From positions 23,838 to 87,837 of the forward strand of contig CAYUVV010000001.1 in NCBI GenBank assembly GCA_964448295.1: 64,000 nt of DNA, in the 5' to 3' direction. Positions 13,911 through 55,960 of this stretch are shown here, in pieces. Under the pieces are notes generated by a model. The model was not told the origin of the DNA, did no database searches, and saw only the letters and a list, made by a program, of their open reading frames with translations. Source of the stretch: an uncultured Candidatus Saccharibacteria bacterium. GTDB taxonomy: Bacteria > Patescibacteriota > Minisyncoccia > Phycocordibacterales > JACOZG01. How positions within the stretch are numbered: position 1 is the first letter of the stretch; every line of letters starts with the position of its first letter. The translations under genes were made by a program, and so were the position numbers.

Positions 13911-14638
13911 CTGTTTTGACCCAATTTTCTTTGTGTGTTAGATTGCCCGAGGAGGCAGAACACTTTTGAAAGGGTTTAAATTGAAAAGAAATTTGTTGGT
14001 CAAGGTTGATGACGCTGGCGGTCTTCGTTGTCCCGCGTTGTTGGTAACTTATCACCGAGACTGGTTATACAGAGTACCCGAGTCTGCTTGCCGCTGTTTG
14101 CTAAGTAGGCAAGACGTGGCTGATCGTTGGAGTTTTCCAGCATCGTCATTGGACTGGACGCTAGAAAGCAGTTTGCCTGGCCCGTTTTCGTTGGCAGATT
14201 TTCCTGGCGATTTGGAAAGGAGAGGTTATCGTGTGGTGGATGCTTCTTGCCGTGCTGACAAACGTCGCACTATTCTCCGTTTCTTGCTTGCGACCAAGGA
14301 TTTTGCGCCACGTTATCAGGCGGCGACGGGGGAAATTTCTTCTCAATGGTATGTTATTCGTGGTGTCTTGGATCGCGTGTCGCGATCATCGAGAGCAACA
14401 TCGGCAACGCTATATCGCCATCGATCAGTTAGCAAGCCTGCCGCTCTCGATCTGTATTGCGCTGCTCGAGCCCTAACTTCTCGACACAGCGATAGTATTA
14501 ACCGGCGCCCGGCGGCTGTTCCGCGATAATGTTATCGTGCCCGTCGGTCGTCTGTCCTGGCCCGGTATGCAACACTGTTGCGCGCCGGGTCTTTTCTTTT
14601 GCGCGATTTTTTGTAAAGATATCTAATAGTTTTTGAAG

Positions 14639-14725
14639 GCGTCGGTGGCGGAGTGGTCAATCGCACTTGACTGTAAATCAAGCGCCCTTCGGGCTACGTA
14701 GGTTCGAATCCTACCCGGCGCACCA
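14639..14725 (+). tRNA. tRNA-Tyr(GTA), CCA encoded
   Basis: Acceptor GCGTCGG/CCGGCGC, D-arm GCG-GAGTGGTCAAT-CGC, anticodon loop CTGTAAA, long variable arm, T-arm GTAGG-TTCGAAT-CCTAC, A-CCA. Confidence 0.8.
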
Positions 14726-15109: not shown

Positions 15110-16366
15110 CTACTTCGATCTGATTGTTGCGTTAAATTCGCCGGTAACGGCTTGTTCGAGTGCGTGGTGCCGCTTGTCTACCTCGGCATTGGTAAGGGTG
15201 CGGTTGAGATGGCGATAGGTAATCCGGAAAGTGTAACTTTTTTTGCCGATCCCAAATTTTTTATCATCGGTGTACTCATCTAGCAACTTGAGCTCCTCGA
15301 TCAATTCGTCGCCGATCACCTCACGGGCGAGCTCGTAATAACGATTAAGATTAAATTTCGTCGTCGTCACGACAAAAGAGATGTCGCGGACGACGGCCGG
15401 ATATTTGCTCACTGGTTGGTAAACGGTATCAATATCTTTGAACTGCTTTAAGACTCGCGGATCATTCGAGCGGAGGAGGCGGATGTCTGGGATTTTCATC
15501 TTAATCATCGCCAAGCGATCGGCGCCGAAGCCGAAAGCCCAGCCGTTATATTTTTCGGGGTCAAGGCCCAGGTTTTTAATCACGGCCGGATGGACGATGC
15601 CGGCGCCCAAAATTTCTACCCAGCGGTTGTCCCAAGCGATTTCCATTTCCAGACTCGGGTCGGTGTAGGGATAGTGTTCGACGTTGAATCTCCCCTCTAT
15701 TTTTTTTCCGAACAAGGCCCGCGCTACTTCCCACAACACGTCCTCCAAATCGGTTTGGGTAATTTTTTGCTGTTCGTGTTTAACGAGATAGAGGCCGTCA
15801 ATATGGTGGAGAACGTTGGTGTGTTGCCAGTCAATTTCATCCCGACGGTAAACTGTGCCATAGCAGAGTACGCCCGCCGCGCCCCCACTCTCTAATTTTT
15901 GGCGCACGGCCGGAATGTCCAAATAGTATTTCCACATCAAACTGGTGTGGGGGCGGAGGATATGTGTTGGCGTGGCGTAGTAGGTATCGCTTCGGCTCCG
16001 GGCCGGATGATCCGCCGGGAAGTTGAACAGATCAAAGACAACGGCGGCCGGAATGATTTCCGGTGTCGTAATCAAATCAAAATCTTGAAAGCGAGGTAGA
16101 CTGATTACGCGTTCGGTGATGGCGGCCACCGGATTGCCCGGTGTTCGTGTCAGATCGGGAAGGGCGAGATAGCGGAGGAGGCGCCTGGCCTCGGTATCAC
16201 CCCGCGTTTTCAGAGTTTGGCGAATCTCGTTCTCTTCTTTAAGAGAAACCTCGTAAATTTGGCGCATAATATCCACGGGTTGCTTTCTGATTCGCTTTAT
16301 ACTACCATTCGTGGGCAATAAATTCCATATGTCCCAAGACCAGCTGATCAAAATTGTTTGCGGCAA
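15110..16366 (-). CDS. Single-chain (mitochondrial-type) phenylalanyl-tRNA synthetase: PheS-like catalytic core fused to a C-terminal FDX-ACB anticodon-binding domain
   Basis: Class II core motifs (FPADHPARSRSDTYY...LRPHTSLMW; FGFGADRLAMIKMKIPDIRLL). The C-terminal KYPAVVRDISFVV...SYTFRITYRHLNRTLTNAEVDKRHHALEQAV resembles the FDX-ACB/B8 fold normally found at the PheT C-terminus. An internal ATG at 16267 (MRQIYEV) is a possible alternative start. Confidence 0.7.
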   Translation of the reverse strand: MPQTILISWSWDIWNLLPTNGSIKRIRKQPVDIMRQIYEVSLKEENEIRQTLKTRGDTEARRLLRYLALPDLTRTPGNPVAAITERVISLPRFQDFDLITTPEIIPAAVVFDLFNFPADHPARSRSDTYYATPTHILRPHTSLMWKYYLDIPAVRQKLESGGAAGVLCYGTVYRRDEIDWQHTNVLHHIDGLYLVKHEQQKITQTDLEDVLWEVARALFGKKIEGRFNVEHYPYTDPSLEMEIAWDNRWVEILGAGIVHPAVIKNLGLDPEKYNGWAFGFGADRLAMIKMKIPDIRLLRSNDPRVLKQFKDIDTVYQPVSKYPAVVRDISFVVTTTKFNLNRYYELAREVIGDELIEELKLLDEYTDDKKFGIGKKSYTFRITYRHLNRTLTNAEVDKRHHALEQAVTGEFNATIRSK

Positions 16367-16492
16367 ATGCCAGCGGATTAACTATTGGAGTCGCAAAAAC
16401 AAAAAACTTGTTACCCGCAAGATTGAGCTCTCGAAGTTTTGCCGCCATTGCCGTTCTCACACGAAACACAAGGAGGGGAAAAAATAGAACAC

Positions 16493-16567
16493 TGGCGGGT
16501 CCGCCGCGACTCGAACGCGGAACCTCGGTTTTGGAGACCGATGTTTTACCATTGAAACTACAGACCC
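16493..16567 (-). tRNA. tRNA-Trp(CCA), CCA encoded
   Basis: Reverse complement reads GGGTCTG TA GTTT-CAATGGTA-AAAC, anticodon loop CTCCAAA, T-arm CCGCG-TTCGAGT-CGCGG, acceptor 3' CGGACCC, G-CCA. Confidence 0.85.
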
Positions 16568-17590: not shown

Positions 17591-17791
17591 ATGGTTGTAC
17601 GAATGCGGCATAATCGTTCCCAGACCCGTCAGCGTCGGAGTCACCACGCGCTCTGTTCGCCGGCGTTAACGCGTTGTGCCAATTGCGGGGTCTGGCGGCG
17701 GAAGCATCGGGCCTGTCTTGATTGCGGTTTTTACCGTGGCCGGCAGGTTTTGACTGTTCGAGCAAAAGCGGAGAAGAAGACCAAAAATTAA
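17591..17791 (+). CDS. rpmF: 50S ribosomal protein L32 (zinc-ribbon form)
   Basis: [21 protein letters not shown] followed by CxxC...CxxC. Confidence 0.8.
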
Positions 17792-17805
17792 GTTTTTTAA
17801 AATTT

Positions 17806-18711
17806 ATGGCGAATCGGCATCTATCGCGGAGCATCGCTCTGCAGTCGCTTTTTGAGTGGGATTTCCGCGAGGCGGCGCCCCTAGAGTTGCCAGTGATTTT
17901 GCGACGTAACGCCGCCGAGTTTGCCCCGGGTTTGACCGATCTCTCCTTCTCCGAACAGTTAACGGAAGGAGTTTTGGCCAACCAGAAAGAAATTGACGGT
18001 GTGATTGAAAAAGCGGCCCCGGAGTGGCCGGTTGATCGGATTGCTTTCGTGGATCGGAGTATTCTGCGCTTGGGTTTGTTTGAGCTTATTTTTGGTGACC
18101 GGAGTGCTGTGCCGGCGCGGGTGGCCATTAACGAGGCGATCGAGTTGGCGAAGACTTTTGGCGGCGAGTCGAGCGGCAAGTTTGTGAATGGGGTCTTGGG
18201 CACGGTGTATCGCGAGATGGGTGAGCCAGATCGCGACGAAATTCCGGCCAAGAAACGACGAGTCACTGATCTACCGCCCGAAAGTTGGCCGGTGGAAAAT
18301 TTGGCGGGAGCGGTAGTTTTCACTCATGAGGCGGGGGAGTTATATTTTGCTCTGGTACACGATGTGTTTGGTTACTGGACTCTCTCCAAAGGGCATATTG
18401 AAGATAACGAAACGCCGGAAGTGGGGGTGGCGCGCGAAGTGCGGGAAGAGTTGACGGTGGAGGTTATCGTTCGCGGCCAAATAGGTGGCAATGAATATGT
18501 GGCGAACGATCCGGAACGTGGCCGTGTGCGCAAGCGGGTTACCTATTTTTTGGCCGAAGTCGCTGGGGGGCGCGTTCCGTTGCGTTTGGGCGCCAAGGAG
18601 GGGCTCGATGACGCTCGTTGGTTTGCGGTGGACGAATTGTCTGGTTTGCGTCTGTATAACGATTTGGCGCCAATTATCACGAAAGGGGCGCAGCTTGCGG
18701 CTAAATTGTAA
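17806..18711 (+). CDS. nusB: NusB antitermination factor fused to a C-terminal NUDIX hydrolase domain
   Basis: The N-terminal ~140 aa is NusB-like (LFEWDF...AINEAIELAKTFGGESSGKFVNGVLG). The C-terminus carries a Nudix box GHIEDNETPEVGVAREVREELTV. ATG at 17806; the track ORF starts at 17722 in the same frame. Confidence 0.7.
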   Translation: MANRHLSRSIALQSLFEWDFREAAPLELPVILRRNAAEFAPGLTDLSFSEQLTEGVLANQKEIDGVIEKAAPEWPVDRIAFVDRSILRLGLFELIFGDRSAVPARVAINEAIELAKTFGGESSGKFVNGVLGTVYREMGEPDRDEIPAKKRRVTDLPPESWPVENLAGAVVFTHEAGELYFALVHDVFGYWTLSKGHIEDNETPEVGVAREVREELTVEVIVRGQIGGNEYVANDPERGRVRKRVTYFLAEVAGGRVPLRLGAKEGLDDARWFAVDELSGLRLYNDLAPIITKGAQLAAKL

Positions 18712-41800: not shown

Positions 41801-44800
41801 ATGGATAGACAGAGTAGCTCACTTTCTCTCGCCGGCGTCTTTTTGGCTGCCCTTTTGTTTGCTTTAGCGCTATGGGCCGGCACCTACATCCCGATTGATA
41901 GTTTGGTTAGCGGTAGCAATCGTTTGGCGGTTGAGAAACAGTTGGCGCAAGTCGGTGGTGGCCCAACCACGGTTGTCTTGTCGGCCGCCGCGGATGCCGC
42001 CGTCCGCGGCGGCAACTTTCAGACCATAAATTACGGTAGCGGAAACGAGTTGGGAATATATCAAGCGGGTGGCCAGTGGGACATCCAACCCTATCTCCGT
42101 TTTGACCTATCTAATATTTCTGGCAATGTTACTGCCGCTCGTCTGCGTTTTTACATTGTCAATGGCGACGACTCGTCATCGCCCCGTCCGGTGAGCCTTC
42201 TCGCCGTAGACGACAATTCTTGGGATGAGACAAGTTTAAACTGGCAAAATCGGCCCAGCACCGGTTCCGCCCTCGGCTCTTTTGCTTTTGGATCAGAGAC
42301 GAGCACTTTTACCGGCTGGCAGGATGTAACCAATTATGTGTCGGGGAAGGTTGCGGCTGGCGCGGCTTCTTTTGCTCTGCGTCATAGCGCGGGCGGCGAG
42401 TATGCCGGCATTGCTTCTCGTGAGTCTGGGCAGCCGGCCGAACTGGAGGTGACTTATGACTCGACGGTGGTTACGCCGCCCACCACCCGCACGCTTGCCA
42501 CCACGGCTAATCCCAGCGCCGGTGGCACTATCAGCCGCCAACCGAATCAGACGAACTACCCTGACGGGAGCGTCGTCACCCTCACCGCCACTCCCAATCC
42601 GGGCTACCAATTCAATAACTGGTCAGGCGATCTCTCTGGCTCACAAAATCCGGTTTCGGTTCAGCTCACGCAAGACAAAACCGTGACGGCCAATTTTGGA
42701 GTGACGTCGCCGAGCGGTGGGAATAGCGGTTACGATCTAACTTGGTCTACTTATTTTGGCGGTTCAGGCGAAGATACAGTGCGTGACGTGGTTGTCGACG
42801 CTGGCGGTAATGTTTATGTGACCGGGGGTACTGGTTCTAGTAATTTTCCGCTAGTCAACCCTGCCCAACCCGCTTTTGGCGGCAATCATGATGTTTTTGT
42901 CTCCAAATTTGGCGCCAACGGCGCCCTGCTGTGGTCAACCTATCTCGGTGGTCCCGGTTACGATCGAGCTTACGCGGTGGAACTGGACGGCGTCGGTAAC
43001 GTCTATGTGGCCGGCCGGGCGGGTAGCGGTTTTCCGGTGACGTCGGGCGTTTTGCAGGCGACCTTTGCCGGCGATTCCAATGTTAATAATAACTATGGCC
43101 CACAGGATGGCTTTGTTGCTAAGTTTAATTCCAACGGGCAGAAACTGTGGGCAACCTATCTCGGCGGGCCAGACCGCAGTTTTATCCGAGACATTGACGT
43201 GGATTCTTCTGGCAACGTTTACGCTGTTCTTACTGACGTTTCCCAATCAAACGGATACCAAACGACTGGCGCTTATCAAGGAACGGTTGCCGGTGGCGCT
43301 AACGGCTTTATCGCTAAATTGAATTCAGCCGGTACGCAAATCCAGTGGGGAACTTATGTTGGCGGCGCATCGAGTGGTCCCGGGTTTGGCACTCCCTCGA
43401 TCCGGGTGGCAAGCAACGGCGAAGTGGTTGCGATGGGAACAAGCGCTTTTGCTGGTGACCCAGTCAGCAACGGTTTGCGCTCCCATGCCGGCGCTTTGGA
43501 TATGTACGTTTTACGCTTGAGCAGTGATGGCCGGACGCGGCGTTGGTCTACTTATCTTGGCGGGAACGCTGACGAATTTTCGGAAACACATTCATTGGCC
43601 CTTAACAGCGCTGGCGATGTCTATGCTGCTTTTACCACTCGCTCTAGCAATTTGCCCGGGGCGGGCGTTGGTTACCAACTAGCGTTAGGTGGAGTCTCTA
43701 ATACCGGCAATTATAACGGCGACGGTTTTGTCGCTAAATTGTCTGGTAACGGTGGAGTCCTGCTTGCCGCCACTTATCTCGGTGGCAGTTCGGGTGACGG
43801 CCTCGAGGGGGTGGGAGTAGACAGCGCTGGGGGTGTTTATGTAAGTGGGGGAACCTTCTCCGCTGATTTCCCAATTACGAGCGACGCGCGGCAAAATAGC
43901 CGCCGGGGCGAAGCAGATTGGTTTGTCTCTAAACTGACCGGCGATCTATCTTCTCTTGTTTACTCCACTTACCTTGGTGGCACCTCGAACTGTGCGGCAG
44001 CCGGAGACACGGTTTGTGATTATGCCCGTAGCGCCACAGTAAATGCCGGCGGGGATTTTTATGTTGTTGGCCATACTAATTCTAGTAATTTCCCGACGCT
44101 TGGGGCTACGCCAAGTCTTAGTACTAACCCCGCCGGGAGTAATGTCAATACCGGGGCGATTGCCAAATTTTCTACCGGCGGAGTAGTTGTCCCGCCTACG
44201 GATTACACGATTACCGCGTCTGTTAGTGGTGGTAACGGCACAATTAACCCGAGCGGCGTGGTTACTGTTTCGGCTGGCGGCTCGCGCACGTTCACTTTCA
44301 GTCCGGCCACTGGTTTTCAAGTCGGAACAGTGGTGGTTGATGGAGCTACCCTGACGCCCCCGCCTCCCACTTATACCTTTTCCAATGTTTCGAGCGCGCA
44401 CACAATAACAATTAGTTTTTCTCCCGTTGCACCCACCACCCGCACGCTTGCCACCACGGCTAATCCCAGCGCCGGTGGCACTATCAGCCGCCAACCGAAT
44501 CAGACGAACTACCCTGACGGGAGCGTCGTCACCCTCACCGCCACTCCCAATCCGGGCTACCAATTCAATAACTGGTCAGGCGATCTCTCTGGCTCACAAA
44601 ATCCGGTTTCGGTTCAGCTCACGCAAGACAAAACCGTGACGGCCAATTTTGGAGTGGTTCAAGCGGTTCAGCCTCTTTTGTTGCGTTTGGAATTTGATGA
44701 CGATAATGCCGACGGCGTGGCCACCGACTCTTCTTCCTTTGGGAACAACGGGACTTGTGTTGGCGCTGTTTGCCCACGTTACTTGAGTGCGGGGAGCGAG

Positions 44801-47800
44801 GATGGTTCAGGGGCGTACGACTGGGACGGAACGAACGATGTACTTGCTTTGCCGGACAGCCCCAGTCTGCGGCCGACGACCAACCTTTCAATTGCGACCT
44901 GGGTCAGGTTTTCATCTTTGAGCGCCGCGCAAGCAATCGTGAATCGCTGGTCTACCAACGGTTTTGCTTGGAGTTTTGCCACCCACTGGCAGAATCCCCG
45001 AGAGTTTTATTTGGCGCTTGACGGGGACGGCACAGCGCCGGCTGATTATTTTGCCATTTCGGCTGGGGCCAATTTGCAACCCAACACTTGGTACCATTTG
45101 GCCGCAACATTTGACGGTAATTCGGTTATTCTATACAAAAACGGGCAGCCCTTACCGACCACAGTGAGTGGGACGAGGCCCGTTCGGCTCCATACCGGTC
45201 CCTCTACTCCACTTGTTGGTTCGATTGGCGGTACGTCTTTTTTAAACGGTCGCCTTGATCGCACCAGAATTTTTGATAGCGCACTGACGCCGAGCGAGAT
45301 CGCGGTGTTGGCTCAAGTTTCAAACCAAACCGGCGACGTTACGCCGCCGGTGGTGGCCGTTACCGCGCCTGTTTCCGGCGTAACTCTTTCCGGCGTAGTT
45401 AATTTTGCCGCCACCGCCGCTGATGTTGGCGGTAGTATCGCGGGCGTTCGATTTTTGCTTGACGGCATCGCGCTTGGCCAAGAGATTACGACCGCGCCAT
45501 ATGCCACAATTTGGGATAGCGCCACGGTGGCTAACGGCCCCCATCAATTGGTGGCCGAGGCTCGTGATGCGGCGGGTAATTTATCCACTAGCGCTCCCGT
45601 CAATTTCGTCGTTAACAATCAAGCGGTTGGTGCAATCACGATCAATTTAACCGCTTTGCCGGCGAGTGGTGCGGCACCCTTGGCGGTCTTCTTTGATGCC
45701 AGTGGCACGACGTATGGCGGTTCGGCGATTCGGCCTTTTCACGATCTTGACTATCGTTGGGATTTTGGTGATCCGGCGAGCGGTGTTTGGGATACCAACG
45801 GCCAGAGCCGCAATGCTGGTCGGGGCCCACTTAATGCCCACGTCTTTGAACGTCCGGGGACTTATACCGTAACGCTTAGTGTGAGCGACGGCCAAGGGCA
45901 GGTGGCTACCAGACAGTCCATCGTCAACGTTAATGTGCCGACGAGCGGCACTTGTTATTCCACGACTGGTAATTTTAGCGGTTGCCCGACCGGTTTCCAG
46001 CAGGTTACAACGTCGCAGGTTGCGGGCAATGGTTTGTACCGTCGCGGCGAAACGTTTACTCGGGTTGGCAATCTGAGTAATGTCAGCTTGCTTGGTGCAT
46101 TTGGCACTGGTCCGCGGCCACGCCTGGTTTTCACCAGCGCGCCCAGTGCTGTGTCGGCTTCGAATAATGCCCTTATCCACGGCGTGGCGATTGATGGCGG
46201 CGGCTATGCTATCCAGGCTGGTGGGTTGGGCACCGAGCATTTGTTTGTCGTTGATAATGAGATCAAAAATTTCTATAACTACGGTTTGTATAAGGGGCCG
46301 TTCAGTCTGGGGCCGGAGGTTGCTTCACGGTATAACGCGGTGATGGGTAATTGGTTTGACACCGCCAGTTCAAATGAGCACGCTATCAGGACATACATTG
46401 CCAAGTCCTATATAGGCCATAACCGGATTGACGGCAACTATCCCCGCGGGACCAATATCAAATTTGTGGGCACCTTGTGTGCTGATGGCTCCAACGATTA
46501 CAACCTGATCGCGGATAACTATTTCAATCATCGGGAACCGCAGGCCGGCATGTTGGCTATTGGCGCGGGCGACGCTGGTCATATCAACTGCTCCAAGGAT
46601 CTAATAATTGAGCGGAATTATTTTGATAATAAAATTGACGGTTGGCCGAAGGCGGCGATGGGGGCAGGCACCAGGTTCGATAGGGTAACGATTAGGAACA
46701 ATATCGCCCGCGAGATGTCGCACTTTATCAGTAATACCGGCGAGACCGGGGCGTCCTATAGTGATTGGCGCATTTACAACAATCTTTTCTATAACACCAA
46801 CCTATTTCCGAGTGGTTATTATTTCTTGTTGTCTAAGGGCTCGATGCCCGGTTTAGAAGTTAGAAACAACATTGTACAGACCTTTGGCGGTTCCGTGAGG
46901 GCTGGTTTAGAATTGCAAAAGGATGCCCCCGCTACCGTAACCGAGACGAACAATATTTGGTACGGCGATTTTAATCCATTATTTAGGATTGGCGGTACAA
47001 ATTATTCCTTTGCCCAGTGGCAGGCTTTGGGTAAAGGGGCGGGTAGTTTGATACAAAATCCATTTTTAACCAGTCCCGGCAATGGTGATTTTTCCTTGAC
47101 GGCCGCTAGTCCAGCAATTGATCAAGGATTTTCTCTTCGCTCGGTGGCAAACGATTTTCTCGGCAATTACCGCCCGCATGACGGTAATAATTCCGGCACG
47201 GCGGAGTGGGATATCGGACCTTACGAATTTGGCTCGAGTGGTGGCGGCAACCCCAACCCGCCCACCACTACCTACTACACCATTACCGTCAACGCTGGCG
47301 CCAACGGCACAGTTAATCCCGGCACAGCGACGGTGGCCGCCGGCAGTAGTCAAAGTTTTACGATTACGCCGAATGGTGGTTATCAAATAGCCAATGTTTT
47401 AGTTGACGGCCAATCAATGGGGCCAATTACCACCCACACTTTTTCTGGTGTTCAAGCCAACCATAATCTCACTGCCGCTTTCAGTCCGTTTGTTCCGTCT
47501 GATACTACCCCGCCTATTATTTCCAATGTGCGGGCGACGAATATCAGTCAGACCGGCGCGCTTATCACCTGGCAAACCGATGAGCCGGCCCGATCTTTTG
47601 CGGAGTATGGTTTTACCACGGCCTACGGCCAGCAAACAGTAAACACTACGGTTTTGGCCACTAATCATGCCGCCAATTTAAATAATTTGTCTCCCGGGGT
47701 GGTTTATCATTATCGGGCTGTTTCTATCGATGCCTTAGGCAATTTGTCTCGTTCAATCAATTTTGTGTTTCAAACTTTGCCAAGCCCTGTTCCCGATACC

Positions 47801-49081
47801 ACCCCTCCGGGCGCAATTCAGGGTTTGACAGCCGTGATTGGCGGCGCCGGCCTAACATCTTATCTAGTAAGTTGGGCGGCTCCGGCCCAAGACGGTAATG
47901 TTGCAAGCTCTGGCGCGGTTGCTAACTACGACCTTCGTTATTCTCTACAGAATATCACAGAAGCGAATTGGTCTTCTGCTGTTGCGGTAACCGGTGAGCC
48001 GCCACCCGGCATACCGGGCGCCTCACAGGATTACACCTTGGTTGGTTTAACTTCCGGCACGACGTATTATGCCGCTCTTAAATCCACTGATGTGGCCAAC
48101 AATCTCTCGCCGCTATCTAATGTAATCTCTTTTAGAACTTTATCAGATCCGCCGCCTGGTCCCGTCATCCCCGGTGGTGGTCCTGGTGGTCCGCACGACG
48201 CTCGTCCGCCGGTATTTGCCTTGCAGGCGGAAATTACTCCCGGACCAGGACAGGCCGTGCTTACTTGGACTAAGCCGACTGATGCCAATTATGTGCGAAC
48301 GCTTATTGTTCGTAGTGCCAATCCCCTGACAGCTTCTGCTGCCAGCACCCAAAATCCAGAACGTCTCACGGGGACGACGGTGGTGTATGAGGGCGCCGAC
48401 CAGTCATTTACCGATACCGGTTTAACCAACGGGCGTACGTATTATTACGCCATTTATGCCTACGACCAGCGTCGTCAGTTCAATCGTCCACAAATTCTTT
48501 CGACCAAGCCCCTTGCCGGCTCGACGAATCAACAGAATGATCCTACCACCGCGCGCGTGGCGACGACGAATTCTTTTTCGGTGACCGATTCGTGTCGTGT
48601 CGAGTCGGTAGTAACGGCGCCAGTCTCGCTGGTCCGCGGTCCTTTTGGTGTTGGTTTGACTTCGCCAGAAGTGCGTCTTTTGCAGGCGATGCTTGCCACG
48701 GATTCTACGTTATATCCAGAGGGGGTGGTTGATGGTTATTATGGCCCGGCGGTAGTACGCGCCATTCAGCGTTTTCAAGCCCGTGAGGGACTAGTGCGGG
48801 CTGGGACACCAGAGACGACGGGTTATGGACTGGCCGGTCCGCAGACCCGCGCCGCCCTGAATCGGGTTTTGGGCGTTCCCAAAACTGTAACGCGAACGGT
48901 GTGTTCGTCTGGCGCGGTTTCAACAGCTGATGGTATTGGCAACTCCGTTTCCAATCCGACTAACACCGTCGGTGGCGATTTAAATAATTCTAGTAATTTA
49001 GCGGCGTTGCTAATTCGCTTGCGCCTAATTCTGCGTTTATTGCTCGAACGTCTCGGCGCGTTTATCTTCGGTTGGTGGTAA
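41801..49081 (+). CDS. Giant multidomain cell-surface protein (2,426 aa)
   Basis: N-terminal signal/TM, then two identical Listeria-Bacteroides-type repeats, about 10 SBBP beta-propeller repeats, InlB-B-like repeats, a LamG/ConA-like lectin domain, an Ig-like domain, a PKD domain, a right-handed parallel beta-helix, three FN3-like domains and a C-terminal peptidoglycan-binding (PG_binding_1-like) domain. Confidence 0.85.
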   Translation: MDRQSSSLSLAGVFLAALLFALALWAGTYIPIDSLVSGSNRLAVEKQLAQVGGGPTTVVLSAAADAAVRGGNFQTINYGSGNELGIYQAGGQWDIQPYLRFDLSNISGNVTAARLRFYIVNGDDSSSPRPVSLLAVDDNSWDETSLNWQNRPSTGSALGSFAFGSETSTFTGWQDVTNYVSGKVAAGAASFALRHSAGGEYAGIASRESGQPAELEVTYDSTVVTPPTTRTLATTANPSAGGTISRQPNQTNYPDGSVVTLTATPNPGYQFNNWSGDLSGSQNPVSVQLTQDKTVTANFGVTSPSGGNSGYDLTWSTYFGGSGEDTVRDVVVDAGGNVYVTGGTGSSNFPLVNPAQPAFGGNHDVFVSKFGANGALLWSTYLGGPGYDRAYAVELDGVGNVYVAGRAGSGFPVTSGVLQATFAGDSNVNNNYGPQDGFVAKFNSNGQKLWATYLGGPDRSFIRDIDVDSSGNVYAVLTDVSQSNGYQTTGAYQGTVAGGANGFIAKLNSAGTQIQWGTYVGGASSGPGFGTPSIRVASNGEVVAMGTSAFAGDPVSNGLRSHAGALDMYVLRLSSDGRTRRWSTYLGGNADEFSETHSLALNSAGDVYAAFTTRSSNLPGAGVGYQLALGGVSNTGNYNGDGFVAKLSGNGGVLLAATYLGGSSGDGLEGVGVDSAGGVYVSGGTFSADFPITSDARQNSRRGEADWFVSKLTGDLSSLVYSTYLGGTSNCAAAGDTVCDYARSATVNAGGDFYVVGHTNSSNFPTLGATPSLSTNPAGSNVNTGAIAKFSTGGVVVPPTDYTITASVSGGNGTINPSGVVTVSAGGSRTFTFSPATGFQVGTVVVDGATLTPPPPTYTFSNVSSAHTITISFSPVAPTTRTLATTANPSAGGTISRQPNQTNYPDGSVVTLTATPNPGYQFNNWSGDLSGSQNPVSVQLTQDKTVTANFGVVQAVQPLLLRLEFDDDNADGVATDSSSFGNNGTCVGAVCPRYLSAGSEDGSGAYDWDGTNDVLALPDSPSLRPTTNLSIATWVRFSSLSAAQAIVNRWSTNGFAWSFATHWQNPREFYLALDGDGTAPADYFAISAGANLQPNTWYHLAATFDGNSVILYKNGQPLPTTVSGTRPVRLHTGPSTPLVGSIGGTSFLNGRLDRTRIFDSALTPSEIAVLAQVSNQTGDVTPPVVAVTAPVSGVTLSGVVNFAATAADVGGSIAGVRFLLDGIALGQEITTAPYATIWDSATVANGPHQLVAEARDAAGNLSTSAPVNFVVNNQAVGAITINLTALPASGAAPLAVFFDASGTTYGGSAIRPFHDLDYRWDFGDPASGVWDTNGQSRNAGRGPLNAHVFERPGTYTVTLSVSDGQGQVATRQSIVNVNVPTSGTCYSTTGNFSGCPTGFQQVTTSQVAGNGLYRRGETFTRVGNLSNVSLLGAFGTGPRPRLVFTSAPSAVSASNNALIHGVAIDGGGYAIQAGGLGTEHLFVVDNEIKNFYNYGLYKGPFSLGPEVASRYNAVMGNWFDTASSNEHAIRTYIAKSYIGHNRIDGNYPRGTNIKFVGTLCADGSNDYNLIADNYFNHREPQAGMLAIGAGDAGHINCSKDLIIERNYFDNKIDGWPKAAMGAGTRFDRVTIRNNIAREMSHFISNTGETGASYSDWRIYNNLFYNTNLFPSGYYFLLSKGSMPGLEVRNNIVQTFGGSVRAGLELQKDAPATVTETNNIWYGDFNPLFRIGGTNYSFAQWQALGKGAGSLIQNPFLTSPGNGDFSLTAASPAIDQGFSLRSVANDFLGNYRPHDGNNSGTAEWDIGPYEFGSSGGGNPNPPTTTYYTITVNAGANGTVNPGTATVAAGSSQSFTITPNGGYQIANVLVDGQSMGPITTHTFSGVQANHNLTAAFSPFVPSDTTPPIISNVRATNISQTGALITWQTDEPARSFAEYGFTTAYGQQTVNTTVLATNHAANLNNLSPGVVYHYRAVSIDALGNLSRSINFVFQTLPSPVPDTTPPGAIQGLTAVIGGAGLTSYLVSWAAPAQDGNVASSGAVANYDLRYSLQNITEANWSSAVAVTGEPPPGIPGASQDYTLVGLTSGTTYYAALKSTDVANNLSPLSNVISFRTLSDPPPGPVIPGGGPGGPHDARPPVFALQAEITPGPGQAVLTWTKPTDANYVRTLIVRSANPLTASAASTQNPERLTGTTVVYEGADQSFTDTGLTNGRTYYYAIYAYDQRRQFNRPQILSTKPLAGSTNQQNDPTTARVATTNSFSVTDSCRVESVVTAPVSLVRGPFGVGLTSPEVRLLQAMLATDSTLYPEGVVDGYYGPAVVRAIQRFQAREGLVRAGTPETTGYGLAGPQTRAALNRVLGVPKTVTRTVCSSGAVSTADGIGNSVSNPTNTVGGDLNNSSNLAALLIRLRLILRLLLERLGAFIFGWW
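42479..42703 (+). repeat. Exact 225-bp intragenic direct repeat, copy 1
   Basis: Nucleotide-identical to 44432..44656. Flanking bases differ on both sides. Confidence 0.9.
44432..44656 (+). repeat. Exact 225-bp intragenic direct repeat, copy 2
   Basis: Offset of 1953 bp (multiple of 3) from copy 1, so in frame. Antisense spurious ORFs in the track are identical over this span. Confidence 0.9.
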
Positions 49082-54867: not shown

Positions 54868-54955
54868 GGAGGGTTCGCATAGTGGTCTAGTGCGCTCGCT
54901 TGGAGAGCGAGTATGCTGCAAGGCATCAAGGGTTCGAATCCCTTACCCTCCGCCA
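54868..54955 (+). tRNA. tRNA-Ser(GGA), CCA encoded
   Basis: 88-nt type II tRNA. Acceptor GGAGGGT/ACCCTCC, anticodon loop TTGGAGA, variable-arm hairpin, T-arm AAGGG-TTCGAAT-CCCTT, G-CCA. Confidence 0.85.
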
Positions 54956-55960
54956 ATTTGCACATTCGCCGATTTGGGGATTGGTTGCCTCGCGGCTTCG
55001 CCGCTCGGCATTGAATTTTGCGGGGATTTTCCAAGCATTTTTCAAATCCAAAACCAACGCCCGATCGGCAATGCGAAAGTTCGAACCAATCTTTTTGAGA
55101 AAATCCCGTCCCGCGACGGGATTTTCTTGCAAGGCGATATTTTCGGCTTGGTCGGCTTCTTTTATGAAATCAATCATGGGTTCGAACCGATTATTGCTCT
55201 TTCGCTCAAAAGCGTTGATTTTTTCTTCCAAATCCTTTTTAGCGAGAATGAGCTTGTGCTTTTTGGCGGCGTACTCCGTTTGTGAAAGCGAGCCGTCCAA
55301 ATGTAAATCTAAAAGTTTGTCTATCTTGCTTTCCATTTCTACAAGCTCATCTCGCGTCTTTTGAGCGAAAGAGCTTTCTGCTTGGGCGGTTTCCAGTTTT
55401 TCTTTTTCCAGTTCGTTTATGCAATTTTCCGCCCAAGCAGAACACAAAGAAACTTTTTGAATTTCATTTTTGATCTGCGAGGTGATGGCGTCCTCCCGTA
55501 CATACCTTTGCTCACAGCGGACTTTTCTTTTGGTGCACCGCAAGTAGTTATGTCTTTTCTGCGTTTCAGTGGTGATAAAACAACCGCACCCGCCACAGCG
55601 GAAAAGTCCGCGATAGATATATGGTTTGAGTTTTGGCGTTTTAGGTTTTGATTTTCTCGCCATCACCTCTTGGCATTTATCAAAAAGTTTCTTTGTGATA
55701 ATCGGTTCGTGCTTTCCGTCATACAATTCGCCATTGTACTCAATTACGCCGTAGTAGATTTTATTTTTGAGTATGTACTGGTAATTGGAGACGGAAAGCA
55801 CCTTGCCTTTCTTGCCAACCAAGCCCAAGGAATTGATAATCTTTCGGATTTGAGCTAGGGGATATTCGCCAGTTGAGTACATTTCAAAAGCCCGCTTGAT
55901 AAACTTTGATTTTTCTTTGTCCACAACTATTTTGCGGCTACAAATTGAAATAATCTCCAA
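54926..55960 (-). pseudogene. Large serine recombinase lacking the N-terminal catalytic resolvase domain (truncated integrase remnant)
   Basis: Starts at the recombinase domain (YPLAQIRKIINSLGLVGKKGKVLSVSNYQYILKNKIYYG). It has a zinc ribbon CGGCGCFITTE...LRC and a coiled-coil tail. The last 10 codons are antisense to the tRNA-Ser 3' end. Confidence 0.6.

Follow-up and report, generated by a model that had tools for sequence, protein, structure and literature searches.

A gene for a probable single-chain phenylalanyl-tRNA synthetase of mitochondrial-type architecture in the chromosome of a Patescibacteria bacterium

Bacterial phenylalanyl-tRNA synthetase (PheRS) is described in textbooks as an invariant (alpha-beta)2 enzyme with editing by the beta subunit, and the single-chain form is treated as a mitochondrial peculiarity. 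A gene on a 64-kb stretch of contig CAYUVV010000001.1 (the whole stretch analyzed, hereafter the window) from the Patescibacteria, or candidate phyla radiation (CPR), raises the question of whether a bacterium can encode the single-chain form and rely on it. The gene quite probably encodes a functional single-polypeptide PheRS with the FARS2/MSF1 architecture, inherited chromosomally in a Parcubacteria-type CPR bacterium, as judged from sequence comparison and a predicted structure. This fused enzyme most likely serves as the housekeeping PheRS instead of the (alpha-beta)2 enzyme.

The extent of the gene was determined first from the protein and its relatives. The first-pass annotation had reported a 418-aa open reading frame (ORF) at 15110..16366 on the reverse strand, and this ORF does translate to 418 aa including the peptides quoted there. 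The database protein P0001 is 100% identical to the window PheRS and is 385 aa long, and the homologs are 385-393 aa long. In the closest syntenic relative (L001), three stop codons are found in frame upstream of the equivalent ATG. The 33-codon upstream extension of the 418-aa ORF overlaps, on the opposite strand, rpmG (16329..16487, forward strand), which encodes ribosomal protein L33 of 52 aa (Pfam Ribosomal_L33, E 1.7e-14) and is divergent from the PheRS gene. It is this L33 coding on the opposite strand that accounts for the conservation of the upstream DNA between the window and L001. Therefore, the true coding sequence is almost certainly 15110..16267 on the reverse strand, starting with the ATG at 16267 and encoding 385 aa plus a stop codon. 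The reported ORF was real, but its start lay 99 nt too far upstream; the TTG start of the 418-aa form is ruled out by the upstream stops in L001 and by the opposite-strand rpmG. The rpmG gene sits between the PheRS start and a tRNA-Trp gene and is below the 60-aa limit used for listing ORFs.

The Pfam search was run on the 418-aa ORF, while the residue numbers given below for the window PheRS are those of the 385-aa form. On the 418-aa ORF, tRNA-synt_2d was detected at residues 78-309 and FDX-ACB at residues 320-416, with no further domain. The protein can be divided into four parts, all encoded on the reverse strand. The N-terminal helical region (aa 1-44; 16136..16267) has AlphaFold2 helices at 10-22, 25-35, and 46-55, the last reaching beyond residue 44. 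This short region stands in for a stretch of about 100 aa that precedes the core in bacterial PheS, and E. coli PheS aligns to the window PheRS only from about residue 100 onward. The class II PheS-type core (aa 45-276; 15440..16135; PF01409, E 1.5e-53) includes motif 2 (15794-15859) and motif 3 (15503-15544). The linker or hinge (aa 277-286; 15410..15439) lies 3' of the conserved segment PDIRLL..D.R..KQ, in which P260, D261, I262, R263, L264, S267, D269, R271, and Q275 are invariant columns of the family alignment, and it aligns with the linker of the human mitochondrial PheRS (mtPheRS) around Ser322-Lys323. The ferredoxin-fold anticodon-binding domain FDX-ACB (aa 287-383; 15119..15409; PF03147, E 1e-19) matches the PheT C-terminus (TIGR00472 positions 691-798), that is, the B8 domain, to which it is homologous. 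Neither a B1-B7 module nor an editing domain was found in the 385 aa with Pfam, and E. coli PheT matches via its C-terminal region only.

The best match among solved structures at the sequence level is human mtPheRS (3CMQ/5MGU), with an E-value of about 1e-57 and both domains covered. For bacterial PheS structures, the match (E 1e-41 or weaker) is confined to the core, and for PheT chains to the C-terminal domain. The AlphaFold2 model, predicted from a 46-sequence family alignment, has a mean predicted local distance difference test score of 92.8 and a predicted template modeling (TM) score of 0.89. Foldseek against the PDB placed 3CMQ and 5MGH at the top (TM 0.75/0.72, root-mean-square deviation 3.6 Å, 391 columns, full length), and bacterial PheS chains, with coverage of the core only, rank below human mtPheRS. 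The model matches the "closed" conformation of 3CMQ. The domain search, the solved-structure match, and the full-length fold all agree with the fusion of a PheS core and FDX-ACB that the first-pass annotation proposed. The mitochondrial architecture it proposed holds as well, given the match to human mtPheRS, the fold match to 3CMQ, and the retained residues for contact with G34. The sequence and the model thus support a mitochondrial-type single-chain PheRS architecture for the window protein.

The human and yeast mtPheRS proteins (FARS2/MSF1; 3CMQ, 3TUP; TIGR00469) are likewise single chains of core, linker, and FDX-ACB without an editing module, and the human fold superposes on the window model over the full length. 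In contrast to them, the window protein is bacterial and chromosomally encoded without a transit peptide, and its identity to the human protein is 33%. An insertion of about 30 residues in human mtPheRS, where the alignment splits at residues 160-190, is missing from the window protein. The pocket also differs, with Asp for Glu, Tyr for Phe, and, in the lineage of the window protein, His for Gln. The core is homologous to that of canonical bacterial PheS (36% identity to E. coli PheS over residues 107-327). Compared with PheS, the chain runs about 110 residues, corresponding to FDX-ACB, past motif 3, and no adjacent pheT is present in the window or in 42 related loci. Compared with the (alpha-beta)2 enzyme, the window protein is fused, has a short N-terminus, and lacks B1-B7, and with them the B3/B4 editing site and B5.

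The catalytic signatures are nearly invariant in 120 homologs: FNFPxDHPAR, RPHTS, YRRDEIDWQHxNxLH(H/Q)IDG (motif 2), (F/Y)PYTDPSxEM, and GWAFGFGxDRLAM (motif 3). The motif 2 Arg, the motif 3 Arg, and GWAFG are invariant. Conservation in the family extends to the equivalents of Thermus thermophilus H178, S180, R204, V261, A314, G316, and R321. Two positions that determine Phe specificity in well-characterized enzymes, E. coli T251 and A294 (T. thermophilus V261 and A314), are Thr and Ala in the window PheRS and are invariant.

For anticodon recognition, human mtPheRS reads G34 via Asp364, Phe366 (Tyr-beta731 in T. thermophilus), Ser375, and Arg414, and the Asp364Gly substitution abolishes its activity (PMC7540514). 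The HMMER alignment places Asp364, Phe366, and Ser375 at Asp330, Tyr332, and Ser344 of the window PheRS, and the family alignment places Arg414 at Arg383, so that the Asp, the aromatic residue, the Ser, and the Arg are common to both proteins. In the 46-sequence alignment, Asp330, Ser344, and Arg383 are invariant, and Tyr332 is conserved in at least 90%.

A mechanism can be proposed by homology to 3CMQ and 3TUP. The class II core would bind ATP and Phe and make Phe-AMP. The C-terminal ferredoxin-fold domain would read G34 of the tRNAPhe GAA anticodon via Asp330, Tyr332 (by stacking), Ser344, and Arg383. Rotation of the domains on the conserved linker would convert the closed form predicted by AlphaFold2 to an open tRNA-bound form, in which the acceptor end could reach the active site. 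As there is no B3/B4 module, cis-editing of Tyr-tRNAPhe would not take place. We infer catalysis, the monomeric state, the hinge motion, and the status as the only PheRS for the window protein. Judged by its sequence and predicted fold, this protein very probably works as a single-chain PheRS that lacks editing.

The window protein belongs to a large family. More than 4,000 homologs were found, and all of the top 120 contain both domains. They come from metagenome-assembled genomes (MAGs) of Patescibacteria/CPR, including Falkowbacteria, Kerfeldbacteria, Moranbacteria, Minisyncoccia, Paceibacterota, Wolfebacteria, Kaiserbacteria, Niyogibacteria, Azambacteria, and Doudnabacteria, and some lie on contigs of 0.3-1.2 Mb. 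Among the CPR fused proteins, identity is 45-80% across many CPR classes. The window PheRS scores 235 bits with the NCBIfam model SrmL (NF051887, "PheS-related mystery ligase"; cutoff 300), 224.9 bits with pheS_mito (TIGR00469; cutoff 258.35), and 169.3 bits with pheS (TIGR00468; cutoff 237.45), and three other family members are likewise below all three cutoffs. The scores below every NCBIfam cutoff explain the label "hypothetical protein" that the homologs carry at NCBI; at JGI they are called "PheRS alpha chain". The TIGR00469 model was presumably designed around yeast MSF1 and the orthologs of that protein in eukaryotes; the window PheRS shares the architecture but is not an ortholog-level member. 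No published description of a bacterial or CPR single-chain PheRS, or of SrmL, was found in the open-access literature, with most subscription journals outside the scope of this search. The fused CPR PheRS family is thus abundant in public data and unnamed by NCBI, and the window protein is a bacterial addition to a known kind of enzyme rather than a new kind.

When 1.84 billion cluster representatives were searched exhaustively, 241 reached E ≤ 1e-30. They can be divided into five groups: CPR-like proteins together with a protein from an Oligoflexia MAG, eukaryotic FARS2, SrmL-like proteins, canonical PheS, and viral-looking proteins of about 350 aa. The genuine FARS2 group includes proteins from Branchiostoma, Globodera, Aspergillus, Batrachochytrium, Pteridium, and Euglena. 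The Oligoflexia homolog (L050 10001-11245, JAIBBV010000034.1) is 414 aa long with two domains and 45% identity, and is annotated as hypothetical. Unless this contig is mis-binned, single-chain PheRS may thus also exist outside Patescibacteria.

A neighbor-joining tree was constructed from 217 core columns of a mafft --auto alignment with 200 bootstraps. All fused cores, including FARS2, form one clade apart from the two-subunit PheS (bootstrap 87%), which is consistent, at the sequence level, with a single origin of the fusion. The CPR clade (85%) and the SrmL clade (100%) are recovered, while their sisterhood has only 41%. How the CPR, SrmL, viral, and eukaryotic groups branch relative to one another is not settled by the tree, and the direction of transfer is not readable from it.

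The genomic setting is that of a core chromosome of a small-genome bacterium. The window encodes IF-2, ClpB, MiaA, a NusB-Nudix fusion, RNase III, SMC, RNase R, TrmD, the S3/L5/L6/S5 ribosomal block, SecY, Adk, Map, Ndk, RNase J, and GroEL. Between the window and the syntenic L001, PheRS shows 80% identity, compared with 80% for TrmD, 79% for RNase R, 77% for NusB-Nudix, 67% for SMC, 62% for MiaA, and 61% for RNase III. This level of constraint, equal to or above that of the housekeeping neighbors, fits an essential gene as far as sequence conservation indicates.

Whether the fused enzyme works alone depends on pheT. E. coli PheT and PheS (NC_000913) were used as tblastn queries against the window and the 42 related CPR loci, 706 kb in total, and no full-length pheT was found there. 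Each locus, like the window, contains exactly one PheS-like gene, the fused one, and the E. coli PheT matches fall only in the C-terminal region of this gene. No PheT was present among the window ORFs of at least 500 aa. The pheS-pheT operon arrangement, near-universal in bacteria, is absent from the window and all 42 related loci. The fused enzyme is rather likely to be the sole PheRS of the genome, because its architecture is self-sufficient, it is under strong constraint, and the genome is small.

Several observations weigh against a sole and genuine PheRS. The pheT search covers, besides the 42 related loci, 64 kb, an estimated 5-10% of a CPR genome, and some CPR lineages have PheRS-beta, often without B2 (Mukai et al. 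2017, PMC5370408). The scores of the window PheRS below the curated cutoffs of TIGR00469 and TIGR00468 also belong here. In the pocket, Asp replaces T. thermophilus E220 and Tyr replaces F260 family-wide, and His replaces Q218 in 76 of the 120 homologs, including the window PheRS, as a lineage-specific change. Asp at the E220 position is also seen in 15 of 77 FARS2-like and 2 of 15 PheS representatives, and Tyr at the F260 position in 3 of the 15 PheS representatives; therefore, these two changes are within the range of genuine PheRS. Finally, in a CPR subclade carrying an additional small ORF, described below, the fused enzyme may not be strictly alone.

It is unlikely that the gene is an auxiliary paralog, such as an SrmL-like non-translational ligase, a stress isoform, or a resistance copy, beside a canonical pheS-pheT. 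The 64 kb of sequence covered and the presence of PheRS-beta in some CPR (PMC5370408) leave room for such a pair. SrmL has the same two-domain architecture, its model gives the best NCBIfam score for the window protein, and it shares with the window protein the Asp at the E220 position and the Tyr at the F260 position. However, the score of 235 bits is below the SrmL cutoff, whereas a true SrmL used as a control (WP_198868198.1, from an Azotobacter chroococcum plasmid) scores 514.7 bits on NF051887. Three positions set the SrmL-like proteins (n = 7) apart: the equivalent of F258 is occupied by His, the G34-stacking position by Thr or Ile, and the equivalent of Ser375 by Asn. The corresponding residues are Tyr, Tyr, and Ser in the window protein and F/Y, Y, and S in the CPR family, which keeps PheRS residues at all three. 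The score and these residues rule out the identification of the window protein as SrmL. The weakly supported sisterhood of CPR and SrmL also argues against this explanation, as does the fused gene being single-copy, syntenic, and as conserved as its essential neighbors. CPR genomes are about 1 Mb or smaller, and redundant synthetases are rarely kept in them. SrmL sits on a plasmid among mobile-element genes, in contrast to the housekeeping context of the window gene. At L044 7815-8927 (NZ_CP066311.1), SrmL is annotated as hypothetical and lies between a DUF4942/methyltransferase-like gene and an HNH endonuclease gene, near insertion sequence elements and a PRTRC ThiF gene. BLAST against plasmids and phages recovered canonical PheS only, plus one SrmL.

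The additional small ORF bears on a second explanation, in which PheRS is a reduced two-component enzyme: the fused protein would supply catalysis and need a trans-acting "mini-beta", consisting of the PheT B2 OB-fold only, encoded elsewhere. In five loci (L021, L024, L028, L034, and L041), the fused gene is preceded at a distance of 0-10 nt by an ORF of 130 aa, which was recorded as a stand-alone tRNA_bind ORF at L024 9588-9980 and L021 9574-9972. It corresponds to the PheT B2 OB-fold only (TIGR00472 positions 41-149, 104 bits). It has 686 homologs, all small stand-alone proteins, for which the JGI name is "PheRS beta chain". A search for CPR PheT with this B2-like ORF as the query returned only small stand-alone proteins. 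The clade with the ORF includes a Doudnabacteria MAG (L041). The B2-only protein may be a vestigial or a re-recruited "mini-beta". Its close association with the fused gene and its similarity to PheT favor a two-component enzyme, but no B2-like ORF was found in the window or the remaining 37 CPR loci, and human mtPheRS works without B2. B2 is also called a dispensable RNA-binding domain in the title of Roy & Ibba 2006, as cited in PMC5370408. A dependence of the window PheRS on such a partner is quite improbable.

The last explanation is acquisition from outside. Single-chain PheRS-like proteins of 340-375 aa with tRNA-synt_2d and FDX-ACB occur on viral-looking contigs, among them those of 348-375 aa at L048 8001-9047 (340,874-bp contig), L051 8001-9065 (160-kb contig), and L052 8001-9128. 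They retain the G34-contact residues; in contrast to the window protein, to which they are 32-37% identical, they belong to separate tree branches and viral gene contexts. Two of these three contigs are huge-phage-like (340 kb, 160 kb), with PhageMetallopep, PcfJ, SNF2 helicase, and dCMP deaminase, and one is giant-virus-like, with ubiquitin, zf-C2H2, and a class I aminoacyl-tRNA synthetase. PHROGs includes only canonical PheS-like and PheT-like families, and no CPR-type relatives were found in IMG/VR viral contigs in a scan with two CPR-specific peptide patterns. A recent horizontal acquisition from a eukaryote, a giant virus, or a huge phage is highly improbable: related proteins do occur on such contigs, and the fused proteins and eukaryotic FARS2 do share one clade, but the CPR proteins form their own clade with considerable internal divergence across many classes, their synteny with housekeeping genes is conserved, the identity to human FARS2 is low, and the IMG/VR scan was negative. 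Any transfer of the fused gene must be ancient. A functional single-chain PheRS, chromosomally inherited in this CPR lineage, is preferred over the three alternatives.

The remaining features of the window are as follows. A tRNA-Tyr gene (GTA; 14639..14725, forward strand; Rfam 62.4 bits) is convergent with the PheRS 3' end, and the tRNA-Trp gene (CCA; 16493..16567, reverse strand; Rfam 58.8 bits) lies beyond rpmG; both flanking genes had been named earlier and were confirmed with ARAGORN and Rfam. No leader RNA or T-box was found upstream of the PheRS gene, where Rfam finds only tRNAs, and promoter and terminator scans at the gene gave no signal above chance level. No match to a defense system was obtained with PADLOC. 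The interval of about 730 bp from clpB to tRNA-Tyr (13911-14638) contains no recognizable gene and no Rfam match; a 187-aa ORF in it (13966-14529) has no Pfam match. NusB is joined to a C-terminal NUDIX hydrolase domain in a 329-aa ORF (17722-18711, forward strand), and this fusion is kept in L001. At 54868-55960, a serine-recombinase-like ORF with Recombinase and Zn_ribbon_recom, but no match to the resolvase N-domain, shares its 3' end with part of a tRNA-Ser(GGA) gene. Downstream, up to about 62000, the GC content falls from about 0.53 to 0.43-0.47, and an element may be integrated at the tRNA. A 2,426-aa multidomain surface-type protein (41801-49081, forward strand) contains CBM96, SBBP beta-propeller repeats, InlB B-repeats, Laminin_G_3, PKD, fn3, and PG_binding_1. 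It may serve in attachment to a host, which would suit the episymbiotic life of a CPR cell.

The thousands of fused proteins recorded as hypothetical at NCBI represent an annotation gap that is easily mended. Both pheS and pheT are in the GTDB bac120 set. If the single-chain form is the only PheRS of a large bacterial radiation, neither pheS nor pheT could be relied on as a universal bacterial marker, and these CPR genomes would look incomplete because the fused protein misses the pheS model cutoff. Studies of how FARS2 arose would also gain a prokaryotic group for comparison. The origin of the eukaryotic mitochondrial PheRS is, to our knowledge, non-alphaproteobacterial and still unexplained. 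A wider reading, which is rather unlikely, is that Parcubacteria-type CPR wholly swapped the (alpha-beta)2 PheRS for an editing-less monomer, and that a fused prokaryotic lineage, possibly spread by phages, was the source of mitochondrial PheRS or is the closest living relative of that source. The evidence allows this: in the tree, PheS is separated from a single clade of all fused cores, and the order within that clade is unsettled. Genome-wide loss of pheT, or a phylogenetic link between the CPR clade and the origin of FARS2, would add to the interest of the family. If it is indeed the only PheRS in these bacteria, the smallest known PheRS design would prove viable in free-standing cells, and the question would follow of how CPR cells tolerate or avoid Tyr misincorporation.

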